Below, piece by piece: positions 53,952 to 57,985 of a stretch of 64,000 bases of DNA. The position numbers and the translations under genes are program-made. The notes under the pieces are model-generated. The model saw only the letters and a list, made by a program, of their open reading frames with translations, searched no databases and was not told where the DNA came from. Each line of letters begins with the position of its first letter. Positions within the stretch are counted from its first letter, which is position 1. Source of the stretch: Escherichia coli (GTDB lineage Bacteria > Pseudomonadota > Gammaproteobacteria > Enterobacterales > Enterobacteriaceae); the NCBI RefSeq assembly GCF_003334785.1, contig NZ_QOWV01000019.1. One strand, written 5' to 3'.

Positions 53952-54261
53952 GATATGGGGTTTGGTCATTGTTAATGAGCATGACAATCATGACCGCCAA
54001 CGACTGGATTCTTCCTTGGTTTATATTGGTGCGCATAATGTATATTATGTTAAATCATGTCTGAGTGATGCGAAGTGCTTTTCTGGTAGTCGTTATTCGT
54101 TCAGGGTTCAAGAACTTAAGCCTCTCCTCTTTCATAATTGGCCTGTGCATGGAGAAATAGCCTGGTTATTCCCTGCCCCATGCTAAGAGCGCAGTGTCTG
54201 TCGCATAGACACTGCATACGAAAACACCAGAGGGTGCTGTTACTTATTTAAGGACGGATCA

Positions 54262-54470
54262 AGCGGGAATGAGTCCACTCCGGTATCAGAAATGGCTACG
54301 TCTCAATGAAGTCAGGCGACAGATGCTGAATGAACATTACGATGTCACCACAGCAGCCTATGCTGTCGGTTACGAAAGCTATCCCATTTCAGTCGGGAAT
54401 ATTCGCGGATGTTTGGAGAGTCACCCAAGAGAGATATTACCAGGTTAAGAAAGTCTGTCGGACAGCTTTA
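54262..54470 (+). pseudogene. yneL: AraC-family regulator remnant: C-terminal HTH fragment with an internal frameshift
   Basis: Frame A reads SPLRYQKWLRLNEVRRQMLNEHYDVTTAAYAVGYES then shifts to frame B reading FSREYSRMFGESPKRDITRLRK (AraC signature); no N-terminal domain or start. Confidence 0.5.
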
Positions 54471-54803
54471 ATAAACCCTGCACTTATCTGTTTAGAGCAA
54501 TTCGGTGTTAGTTTCAGCAAGCAAACATTAACCATAGCTAATGATTTATAGCCATATTAACCATTGGTAGCTCTTGACCTTTCCTGACACTTCCCTTGTT
54601 CGCAATAATATTCTGTTTAGTCACGGTTTATAAATAACATGCATAATGAAATCGTCATGTTATTTAGCGACATAAAATGTTTTTGCAAATACTCTCTTCA
54701 ACAAGTGCAGCAATAAACTTGTTGTGGAACCAATATCCAGGTCGCAGGATATCGCTATTCTACGCAAGGTTTTTATAACTTATCCGACAGTGCCTACAGT
54801 CGA

Positions 54804-55952
54804 ATGAGTGGTTACACCGTCAAGCCTCCTACCGGAGACACCAATGAGCAGACACAATTTATTGATTATTTTAATCTGTTCTACAGTAAGCGTGGTCAGG
54901 AACAAATAAGCATCTCTCAGCAGCTTGGAAATTACGGTACGACATTTTTCAGTGCCAGTCGCCAAAGTTACTGGAACACGTCACGCAGCGACCAGCAAAT
55001 ATCATTTGGATTAAATGTGCCGTTTGGTGATATTACGACTTCGCTGAATTACAGCTATTCCAATAATATATGGCAAAACGATCGGGATCATTTACTCGCT
55101 TTTACGCTTAATGTTCCCTTCAGTCATTGGATGCGTACAGACAGTCAGTCGGCATTTCGTAATTCAAACGCCAGTTACAGTATGTCAAACGATTTGAAAG
55201 GCGGCATGACCAATCTATCGGGGGTTTATGGCACTCTGCTGCCGGATAATAACCTGAATTATAGCGTTCAGGTCGGTAACACCCACGGAGGTAATACATC
55301 GTCTGGCACCAGTGGTTACAGTTCTCTTAATTATCGTGGAGCTTATGGTAATACTAATGTCGGTTACAGTCGGAGTGGTGACAGCAGCCAGATTTATTAC
55401 GGAATGAGTGGTGGGATTATTGCTCATGCTGATGGCATCACCTTTGGACAGCCGCTGGGCGACACAATGGTTCTGGTTAAGGCTCCTGGTGCTGATAATG
55501 TCAAAATAGAGAACCAGACCGGAATTCATACCGACTGGCGTGGCTATGCCATATTACCATTTGCGACAGAATATAGAGAAAACCGTGTTGCTCTTAACGC
55601 GAATTCCCTTGCAGATAATGTTGAACTGGATGAAACCGTGGTCACTGTCATCCCAACTCACGGTGCTATTGCCAGAGCAACATTTAATGCACAAATCGGC
55701 GGGAAAGTATTAATGACGTTGAAGTACGGTAATAAGAGCGTTCCATTCGGTGCAATTGTCACACACGGAGAGAATAAAAATGGCAGCATTGTCGCGGAAA
55801 ATGGTCAGGTTTATCTGACTGGACTTCCACAGTCAGGGCAATTACAGGTTTCATGGGGCAAAGATAAAAACTCAAACTGTATTGTCGAGTACAAGCTTCC
55901 TGAAGTTTCTCCTGGTACCTTACTGAACCAGCAGACAGCAATCTGTCGCTAA
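54804..55952 (+). pseudogene. ydeT: Fimbrial usher C-terminal fragment (~380 of ~850 residues)
   Basis: ORF track 382 aa resembling the C-terminal half of FimD-type ushers; upstream frame closed by stops; no chaperone or major subunit gene upstream. Confidence 0.7.
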
Positions 55953-55965
55953 GGAACAATAGATT

Positions 55966-56496
55966 ATGAAATACAATAACATTATTTTCCTCGGTTTATG
56001 TCTGGGGTTAACCACCTATTCTGCTTTATCCGCAGATAGCGTTATTAAAATTAGCGGGCGCGTCCTCGATTATGGCTGCACAGTCTCATCGGATTCGCTT
56101 AATTTTACCGTAGATCTCCAAAAAAACAGTGCCAGACAATTTCCAACGACCGGTAGCACAAGTCCAGCCGTCCCTTTTCAGATTACGTTAAGTGAATGCA
56201 GCAAAGGGACAACGGGGGTTCGGGTTGCATTTAACGGTATTGAGGATGCAGAAAATAATACTTTGTTGAAACTGGATGAAGGAAGCAATACGGCCTCCGG
56301 TTTGAGTATAGAAATATTGGACGCAAATATGCGTCCGGTGAAACTGAATGATCTTCATGCCGGGATGCAGTGGATCCCACTGGTACCAGAACAGAACAAT
56401 ATTTTGCCTTACTCCGCTCGTCTGAAGTCAACTCAGAAGTCCGTCAATCCGGGACTGGTGAGGGCTTCGGCAACCTTTACCCTTGAATTTCAATAA
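55966..56496 (+). CDS. ydeS: Fimbrial subunit-like protein with signal peptide, 176 aa
   Basis: ORF track; signal peptide and C-terminal ...FTLEFQ donor-strand-acceptor pilin pattern. Confidence 0.75.
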   Translation: MKYNNIIFLGLCLGLTTYSALSADSVIKISGRVLDYGCTVSSDSLNFTVDLQKNSARQFPTTGSTSPAVPFQITLSECSKGTTGVRVAFNGIEDAENNTLLKLDEGSNTASGLSIEILDANMRPVKLNDLHAGMQWIPLVPEQNNILPYSARLKSTQKSVNPGLVRASATFTLEFQ

Positions 56497-56508
56497 TCAG
56501 AGTCAGAT

Positions 56509-57012
56509 ATGAAAAGACTTCACAAGAGGTTCCTGTTAGCTACGTTTTGCGCGTTATTCACAGCAACTCTCCAGGCCGCCGATGTCACTATCACTGTTAA
56601 TGGTCGGGTAGTCGCTAAACCCTGCACTATTCAAACCAAAGAAGCTAACGTTAATCTCGGGGATCTTTATACGCGCAATCTGCAACAACCTGGTTCTGCA
56701 TCTGGCTGGCACAATATTACTTTGTCATTAACCGATTGTCCGGTTGAAACAAGTGCAGTGACGGCAATCGTGACAGGTTCAACTGACAATACGGGTTATT
56801 ACAAAAATGAAGGTACTGCCGAAAATATTCAGATAGAGCTGAGGGATGACCAGGATGCTGCGTTAAAAAATGGCGATAGCAAAACGGTTATTGTTGATGA
56901 GATCACTCGTAATGCACAGTTTCCACTTAAGGCAAGAGCTATCACGGTGAATGGAAACGCAAGCCAGGGAACGATCGAGGCGCTAATCAATGTGATCTAC
57001 ACCTGGCAATAA
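56509..57012 (+). CDS. ydeR: Fimbrial subunit-like protein with signal peptide, 167 aa
   Basis: ORF track; pilin-like ending ...NVIYTWQ. Confidence 0.75.
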
Positions 57013-57070
57013 CGTCGATTCGATTTTCTTAGCCTTCTTTTTAAATCAATTTTTAACCTTAGGATATATC

Positions 57071-57985
57071 ATGGGTAAAACAATCAGTATAAAGGTCCTG
57101 TTCGGTATTTATCTTCTATTAATGGCAGGCAAAGTTTTTGCCTTCAGTTGTAATGTCGATGGCGGGTCAAGTATTGGAGCAGGTACAACCTCTGTTTATG
57201 TTAATCTCGACCCTGTAATACAGCCGGGCCAGAATCTGGTTGTAGACTTGTCTCAGCATATAAGTTGCTGGAATGATTACGGCGGCTGGTACGACACTGA
57301 TCATATAAACCTGGTACAAGGCTCAGCTTTCGCAGGCTCCCTACAGTCATATAAAGGATCGCTGTACTGGAATAATGTGACCTACCCCTTCCCGTTGACG
57401 ACAAATACCAACGTATTGGATATTGGTGATAAGACACCGATGCCATTACCGTTAAAACTCTATATTACCCCAGTTGGGGCGGCCGGTGGAGTTGTCATAA
57501 AAGCGGGGGAAGTCATTGCCCGTATTCATATGTATAAAATTGCAACATTAGGAAGCGGAAATCCGCGTAATTTTACGTGGAATATTATTTCAAATAACAA
57601 TGTTGTTATGCCAACAGGCGGCTGCACCGTTGATAGTCGTAATGTCACCGTGGATCTCCCGGACTTTCCTGGAAGCGCAGAAATACCCCTTGGCGTATAT
57701 TGCTCAAGCGAACAAAAGCTCTCATTTTATCTTTCGGGTGCCACCACTGACAGTAGCCGACAAGTGTTTGCTAACACAGCACCTGATGCAACAAAAGCAT
57801 CGGGAGTGGGTGTCACTCTAATGCGTAATGGAAAAATACTGGCTACGGGAGAAAATGTCTCCCTGGGGACAGTAAATAAAAGCAAAGTACCTCTGGGTTT
57901 AAGCGCAACCTATGGACAAACAGGAAACAAGGTTTCAGCCGGAACCGTCCAGTCAGTCATTGGTGTCACTTTTATCTATGAATAA
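57071..57985 (+). CDS. ydeQ: FimH-like two-domain fimbrial tip adhesin, 304 aa
   Basis: ORF track; size and C-terminal pilin domain ending ...GVTFIYE. Confidence 0.75.

Follow-up and report, generated by a model that had tools for sequence, protein, structure and literature searches.

Gene Content of the Locus

The DNA considered here, hereafter the window, is a 64,000-nucleotide stretch of Escherichia coli (assembly GCF_003334785.1, contig NZ_QOWV01000019.1), and our subject is the remnant of a chaperone-usher fimbrial operon, F9 (also termed Fml or Yde), that lies within it beside a fragment of an AraC-type regulator gene. The open reading frames (ORFs) of positions 50000-62000 begin with a large autotransporter, followed by hipB, hipA (which ends at 53951) and a short AraC-type ORF; then come a 382-residue usher-like ORF, three fimbrial subunit ORFs, ydeP, safA and ydeO. 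When 53500-58300 was compared by megablast with 5,426 complete E. coli genomes, its identity to K-12 MG1655 and relatives was 100%. The window as a whole is 99.96-100% identical to K-12-type genomes, and we read it as coming from a close relative of K-12, in which it covers the hipBA–yneL'–ydeT'–ydeSRQ–ydeP region. The RefSeq names in MG1655 are hipA, “helix-turn-helix domain-containing protein,” ydeT, ydeS, ydeR and ydeQ, and two of these genes are recorded there as pseudogenes: the helix-turn-helix gene (frameshifted, incomplete, missing its N-terminus) and the ydeT usher gene (incomplete, missing its N-terminus). The broken F9 operon of K-12 and its relatives is well known, having been annotated and published before. 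What the present analysis adds is a base-exact definition of the deletion, its frequency (about one quarter of complete E. coli genomes), the recognition that the f9 promoter was kept, and a correction regarding the AraC-type fragment.

The usher pseudogene ydeT' (54726..55952, plus strand) corresponds to codons 476-883 of 883. Counted from its first in-frame ATG, the ORF spans 54804-55952 and encodes 382 residues; homology to the full-length 883-residue usher begins upstream of that codon, at 54726, and when 54726-55952 is translated, the product matches NCBIfam model NF011740 at positions 470-877 of 877. The intact O157:H7 orthologue (883 residues) aligns to the same model over 6-877. In that intact protein Pfam recognizes PapC_N (43-195), Usher (213-795) and PapC_C (804-868), and in ydeT' only Usher model positions 259-549 and PapC_C, with PapC_N absent and the first 258 of the 549 Usher positions missing. 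Judged by these alignments, ydeT' has kept the distal half of the usher barrel and the C-terminal domains, and has lost the signal peptide together with the N-terminal domain and the proximal barrel half. From the layout of FimD, the plug is taken to lie in the proximal half that ydeT' is missing, and in FimD structures the N-terminal domain is the part that recruits chaperone-subunit complexes. Because an in-frame TAA at about 54714, some 10 bp before the start of usher homology, closes the frame upstream, a longer ydeT' start is impossible. A tblastn search of the whole 64-kb window with the F9 major pilin, the chaperone and usher residues 1-475 returned no match at E<=1e-3. The original prediction, made from the sequence without database searches, held that the usher survives only as its C-terminal ~380 residues and that chaperone and major pilin genes are missing, and both statements stand; it also named an upstream start and an overlooked chaperone gene as findings that would overturn it, and both were sought and neither was found.

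Downstream of the usher remnant, three genes on the plus strand are intact, as that prediction had it: their frames are open, without indels or internal stops, and their lengths equal those in the intact O157:H7 operon. The first, ydeS (55966..56496, 176 residues), encodes a FimF-like adaptor subunit (NCBIfam FimF, 237 bits against a cut-off of 200), and the second, ydeR (56509..57012, 167 residues), a FimG-like minor subunit (NCBIfam FimG, 256 bits against a cut-off of 220). The third, ydeQ (57071..57985, 304 residues), encodes a two-domain tip adhesin assigned as the FmlH orthologue by alignment to FmlH and FimH: its lectin domain is identical at 159 of 160 positions to the FmlH of PDB entry 6aow (E=5e-107), and the whole protein aligns full-length to FimH (E=1e-81), with the pilin domain on FimH residues 160-279. 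Reviews treat YdeQ as the same protein as FmlH, which sits at the tip of F9 pili and binds Gal-beta-1,3-GalNAc/GlcNAc (PMC12442223). Amino-acid differences from O157 number two in ydeS and three in ydeR, and range from two to five across ydeSRQ. Set against a functional F9 operon, the locus has the chromosomal site upstream of ydeP, collinear with the O157 and Ecol_316 loci, the FimF-like and FimG-like adaptors and the two-domain adhesin with its FmlH lectin domain; a major pilin gene, a chaperone gene and a full-length usher (PapC_N, Usher and PapC_C together) are missing.

The ratio of nonsynonymous to synonymous differences (pN/pS) relative to O157 is 0.10-0.31 for ydeSRQ and 0.16 for the dead usher fragment, which is equally free of stops and indels. 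As a test of kept function pN/pS was rejected, the dead fragment giving like values, and since that fragment is just as intact, the intactness of ydeSRQ says nothing about current function. By this comparison, it reflects the youth of the deletion and not demonstrable maintenance.

The Deletion and the Retained f9 Promoter

Alignment by blastn to the intact operon of O157:H7 F6321 (locus L002) resolves the difference into a single deletion event of 3,279 bp. Window 53724-54726 is collinear with L002 4699-5721 and window 54726-64000 with L002 9001-18277, and L002 bases 5722-9000 are missing at the junction 54725/54726, a point to which no strand applies. Within this gap L002 has the 178 bp that lead up to the ATG of the major pilin gene, then that gene itself (5900-6463), a gene for the chaperone (6824-7534) and the first 475 codons of the usher. 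Comparison with intact orthologous operons was the check proposed alongside the original prediction, and it bears out the view that the locus is what remains downstream after a chaperone-usher operon lost its 5' half by deletion. When the junction and both intact breakpoints were aligned three ways, they showed a microhomology of 1 bp (a shared G), and no insertion sequence (IS) scar, IS end or repeat was found there. No Rfam family matched within 52000-61000.

The junction is widely distributed. A 120-bp probe centred on it is matched in full by 1,381 of the 5,426 complete genomes; of the probes for the undeleted breakpoints, the left-hand one finds a full match in 3,083 genomes and the right-hand one in 3,736. 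These frequencies agree with the survey of Wurpel et al. (2014; PMC3966885), in which f9 sequences were present in 42 of 42 genomes, the operon was intact in 60%, and all phylogroup A strains were scored as having it disrupted, among them MG1655, DH10B, BW2952, BL21(DE3), REL606, HS and ATCC 8739. From the identity of the junction we infer that the deletion had one origin.

The f9 upstream regulatory region (54472..54725, plus strand) is recognized by its alignment to O157 and its homology to the mapped promoter of strain CFT073. In CFT073 the f9 transcript starts, by 5'RACE (rapid amplification of cDNA ends) mapping, at a G 251 nt upstream of the pilin ATG, preceded by a -10 element CATAAT and a -35 element TAGTCG with an 18-bp spacer, and the region is bound by H-NS (PMC3966885). 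The window has -35 TAGTCA (54618-54623), an 18-bp spacer, -10 CATAAT (54642-54647) and the start G at 54654, such that the first 72 nt of the 251-nt 5' untranslated region (UTR) are kept between start and junction; in L002 the start falls at 5649, likewise 72 nt before the left breakpoint, and the window is identical to L002 over this stretch. A consensus promoter scan finds the same -35/-10 pair at the f9 site, the promoter and terminator scans, with counts no better than those from shuffled sequence, serving only as confirmation of the published hexamers. Because the f9 promoter and start site survive, ydeT'-ydeSRQ is probably still an H-NS-silenced, low-temperature-inducible transcription unit. 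A peak of RNA polymerase binding between ydeS and hipA in MG1655, seen by genomic SELEX (systematic evolution of ligands by exponential enrichment), is compatible with this, albeit not specific to it (PMC5493296).

The deletion extends from 72 nt past the f9 transcription start to usher codon 475. Lost with it were the remainder of the 5' UTR, the genes for the major pilin and the chaperone and, from the usher, the signal peptide, the N-terminal domain and the proximal half of the barrel. Usher codon 476 is now joined to the native f9 promoter with 72 nt of its leader, and intact ydeS, ydeR and ydeQ follow.

The AraC-Type Fragment

Upstream of the promoter lies yneL' (54263..54471, plus strand), which we take, from relatives with PF12833/PF00165, to be the C-terminal remnant (~69 codons) of an AraC_N and HTH_18 (YqhC-like) regulator. 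Its homology begins at MSPLRYQKW. Compared with O157 and other strains it has lost 1 bp at 54379/54380 (CTTAT to CTAT), which yields exactly the jump of frame described in the original prediction of a frameshifted AraC-family fragment; the O157 version reads KLANRVQMSTPSFHQHFRQLAGMSPLRYQKW...SPKRDITRLRKSVGQL with no frameshift. The window has neither the complete pair of helix-turn-helix motifs, nor the AraC_N domain, nor the uninterrupted frame of an AraC/XylS regulator.

The same prediction went further and made this gene the likely activator of the operon, lost in the same event, and here the evidence contradicts it. In O157:H7 F6321, Ecol_316, CLSC36 and Jnd12, all of them F9-complete, yneL' is already annotated as incomplete and missing its N-terminus, at ~89-97 codons. 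The truncation is at the 5' end, on the side facing away from the F9 operon, and the DNA between yneL' and the deletion, f9 promoter included, is collinear with that of intact strains. The 89-residue O157 fragment aligns only to the last 75-81 positions of AraC-family models. A protein database search with it returned only fragments of <=155 residues among the best 120 matches and no full-length orthologue, and two E. coli strains in which the gene is labelled “transcriptional regulator” (H79 and H93), examined for a full-length yneL, both proved to be annotated as missing the N-terminus. On these alignments, yneL' was truncated from the far side before the f9 deletion and independently of it; the independence of the two lesions is shown here.

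A fuller copy of the gene occurs elsewhere. The fragment's database relatives are HTH_18 proteins, and the more distant of them carry a REIHYRLL...LRQIA...AIDWLK region typical of AraC_N (YqhC-like). The origin was traced through the contexts of two 128-residue relatives, leaving out L008-L011, whose gene calls are heavily fragmented. One 128-residue relative, at 87% identity, occurs in locus L012 directly after an AraC_N ORF; neither the window nor any of the E. coli loci examined has AraC_N, which was seen as a separate ORF only in L012. The L012 regulator (7431-8387, an AraC_N ORF plus an HTH_18 ORF) is the fullest yneL relative and adjoins the cus copper-efflux operon. It is divergent from hydrolase and DUF2255 genes at the end of an aldo-keto reductase/amidohydrolase/ABM/carboxymuconolactone-decarboxylase (CMD) island, and no fimbrial genes were found near it. 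The same island, at ~93% DNA identity, stands immediately upstream of yneL' in Ecol_316, with small scraps of the DUF2255 and hydrolase genes between the two. Similarity between L012 and E. coli ends exactly at the regulator's stop codon. The gene of which yneL' is the tail was therefore the last one in an oxidoreductase island that has decayed.

A further trace of that island is visible in the window itself. Besides the frameshift, yneL' differs from its O157 counterpart in a ~100-bp patch that replaces the first ~20 codons, with no alignment there. Positions 54187..54250 (no strand assigned) match L012 6119-6189 by blastn at 76% identity, the matched DNA being intergenic between the DUF2255 and hydrolase genes; this patch holds a perfect 9-bp hairpin at 54191-54215 and is absent from O157. 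By this match, K-12-type and O157-type strains keep different scraps of one decayed island. On this account an oxidoreductase/hydrolase island ended in a gene for a YqhC-like regulator, of which yneL' is the last ~70-90 codons; the gene was 5'-truncated before the f9 deletion, and in K-12-type strains it was further damaged by the frameshift and the replaced 5' patch.

Interpretation and Alternatives

We hold with high confidence that this is the F9 (Fml/Yde) chaperone-usher operon in its K-12/phylogroup-A allele, inactivated by one ~3.28-kb illegitimate-recombination deletion, and that the AraC-type fragment is a separate, older relic. The following considerations weigh against parts of this account. 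Its single origin is read only from the identity of the junction across 1,381 genomes, where spread by homologous recombination is also possible, and strains that differ in their upstream DNA share that junction. Retention of the promoter is argued by homology to CFT073, and shuffled sequence yields as many promoter-like sites in consensus scans. In L012 the fuller AraC copy is likewise broken, into two ORFs, and the role of the L012 regulator over the neighbouring hydrolase is read from gene arrangement only.

An explanation in which the truncation is an assembly or sequencing artefact of the window has no point in its favour and deserves no credence: the truncation has stood in the K-12 reference annotation for decades, and the idea was rejected because the identical junction recurs in 1,381 independently assembled complete genomes. 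Another idea is that a single deletion took both the 5' half of the operon and an AraC-type activator, leaving the helix-turn-helix fragment and the usher remnant as its two edges. In its favour, the two pseudogenes lie 254 bp apart in the same orientation, and AraC-family activators do regulate some fimbrial operons. Such an event is nevertheless exceedingly improbable here, given that the fragment is cut on the side away from the operon and is equally short in F9-intact strains, that the DNA between fragment and deletion, with the f9 promoter, is collinear with intact strains, and that the fuller copy sits in an oxidoreductase island devoid of fimbrial genes. Nor is there a published tie to f9 control: the f9 5' region has been described as variable, with hypothetical regulators, and no evidence connects the upstream regulators to control of f9 (PMC3966885).

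The remaining question is whether the surviving genes are of any use. The original prediction held that the locus could not assemble a pilus of its own, and this is borne out by the missing chaperone, pilin and front half of the usher; it added that another usher might use the adhesin. In its fullest form, that proposal would have ydeSRQ expressed from the kept f9 promoter at low temperature or upon relief from H-NS, with YdeQ exported by FimC/FimD as an orphan tip. Were this so, some cells would carry hybrid pili with a Gal-beta-1,3-GalNAc/GlcNAc-binding tip, and the remnant in phylogroup A strains would have been retained for function and would not be awaiting decay. The surviving f9 promoter and start site, the near-complete identity of the YdeQ lectin domain to crystallised FmlH and the scores of YdeS and YdeR above the FimF and FimG equivalog cut-offs all favour it. 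There is moreover an experimental precedent for CFT073 FmlH: full-length fmlH from that strain was expressed in the K-12 strain AAEC191A together with a fim cluster inactivated in fimH, and the V33E or F63E mutants gave strong galactose-inhibitable adhesion, which implies display by FimC/FimD (PMC8064603). In the same hybrid system, however, wild-type FmlH gave no detectable binding despite plasmid expression and the lack of a competing FimH (PMC8064603), and f9 is repressed by H-NS at 37 C (PMC3966885). The intactness of ydeSRQ is uninformative, as already argued, and in other lineages further parts of the locus have been lost by IS insertions or larger deletions. We therefore consider it very unlikely that the orphan cassette is expressed and its adhesin exported in this way, and the same doubt attaches to such use of the chromosomal K-12 genes, which would have to overcome H-NS silencing and competition from FimH.

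The preferred reading is then one of inactivation by deletion. No pilus can be built by a locus that is missing its cognate chaperone and usher, and fimbriae on the cell surface would not be expected from the F9 remnant, given the absent parts. The remnant, presumed to be without function, is a classic example of how fimbrial operons decay in commensal and laboratory E. coli, with little significance beyond housekeeping.

Other Lesions and the Variable Neighbourhood

The F9 locus has been broken in other ways. OkiPb01710 (L001 3764-4301) and BL21 (H102) carry a different deletion, which joins yneL' to the portion of the major pilin gene that encodes the C-terminus; the fusion ORF (P0096) is 149 residues long with HTH_18 and Fimbrial domains, and is present in at most 36 of the 5,426 genomes. 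This deletion explains the “YneL with a FimA-like domain” reported in BL21 (PMC9308461). Both the AraC fragment and the BL21 “YneL-FimA fusion” are by-products of independent deletions and not parts of a fimbrial regulator. Still other genomes have IS insertions or larger losses at the F9 locus (H6, H12, H38 and H39). Decay of F9 is thus proceeding by more than one route.

The DNA upstream of yneL' (left of window ~54046) is a variable site (L002 4699-4926, L004 1-5453, L005 1-5769). K-12-type strains have the full hipBA there, and in O157:H7 hipA is reduced to its final 228 bp. The site is occupied in F5656C1 by genes for a DEAD/DEAH helicase and a sigma-like helix-turn-helix protein together with a DUF4365 gene, and in Ecol_316 by the aldo-keto reductase/ABM/CMD island. 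Farther upstream, an ECSE_1600-family autotransporter ORF (46720-52140, 1,806 residues) is intact in the window; the same gene is annotated as frameshifted in the MG1655 record, O157 and OkiPb01710. The only indel relative to the MG1655 record is a G7 versus G8 tract at 50674-50680.

Comparison with Known Systems

The intact F9/Fml/Yde operons of uropathogenic E. coli CFT073 and UTI89 and of enterohaemorrhagic O157:H7 (c1931-c1936, fmlA-fmlH) occupy the same site, from the hipBA/yneL' side to ydeP, with the same promoter sequence and with 97-99% DNA identity in the C-terminal half of the usher, the adaptors and the adhesin. Relative to them the window has lost the distal part of the 5' UTR, the genes for the major subunit and the chaperone, and codons 1-475 of the usher, and with these parts missing it cannot assemble F9 fimbriae. 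MG1655, listed as carrying a “disrupted” F9 (PMC3966885), is the nearest comparison: ydeTSRQ and yneL have the same pseudogene calls in both, and there are seven substitutions and one indel over 18.5 kb, two of the substitutions inside the locus, so that the window represents a close K-12 relative and not the MG1655 record itself. The locus is otherwise no different, and the main distinction is the neighbouring autotransporter, intact in the window. The f9 lesion of BL21 and OkiPb01710 is likewise an inactivating deletion at the 5' end of the operon. Its breakpoints differ, however, running from the yneL' 3' end into the major pilin, with the chaperone kept and the usher full length, albeit frameshifted in OkiPb01710.

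Among regulators, yneL' most resembles the YqhC type (AraC_N plus HTH_18), in that it matches HTH_18 and its nearest non-fragment relatives have the AraC_N-typical region; the window keeps only the last ~69 codons, frameshifted, with no ligand domain and no first helix-turn-helix. As a fimbrial system, F9 has its closest paralogue in type 1 fimbriae (fimAICDFGH), the usher fragment aligning to FimD and YdeQ full-length to FimH. The two systems nonetheless occupy different loci, the chaperone and usher of F9 do not reach the FimC and FimD cut-offs, and the adhesins differ in their ligands, FmlH binding Gal-beta-1,3-GalNAc/GlcNAc and the type 1 adhesin binding mannose (PMC12442223; PMC3966885).

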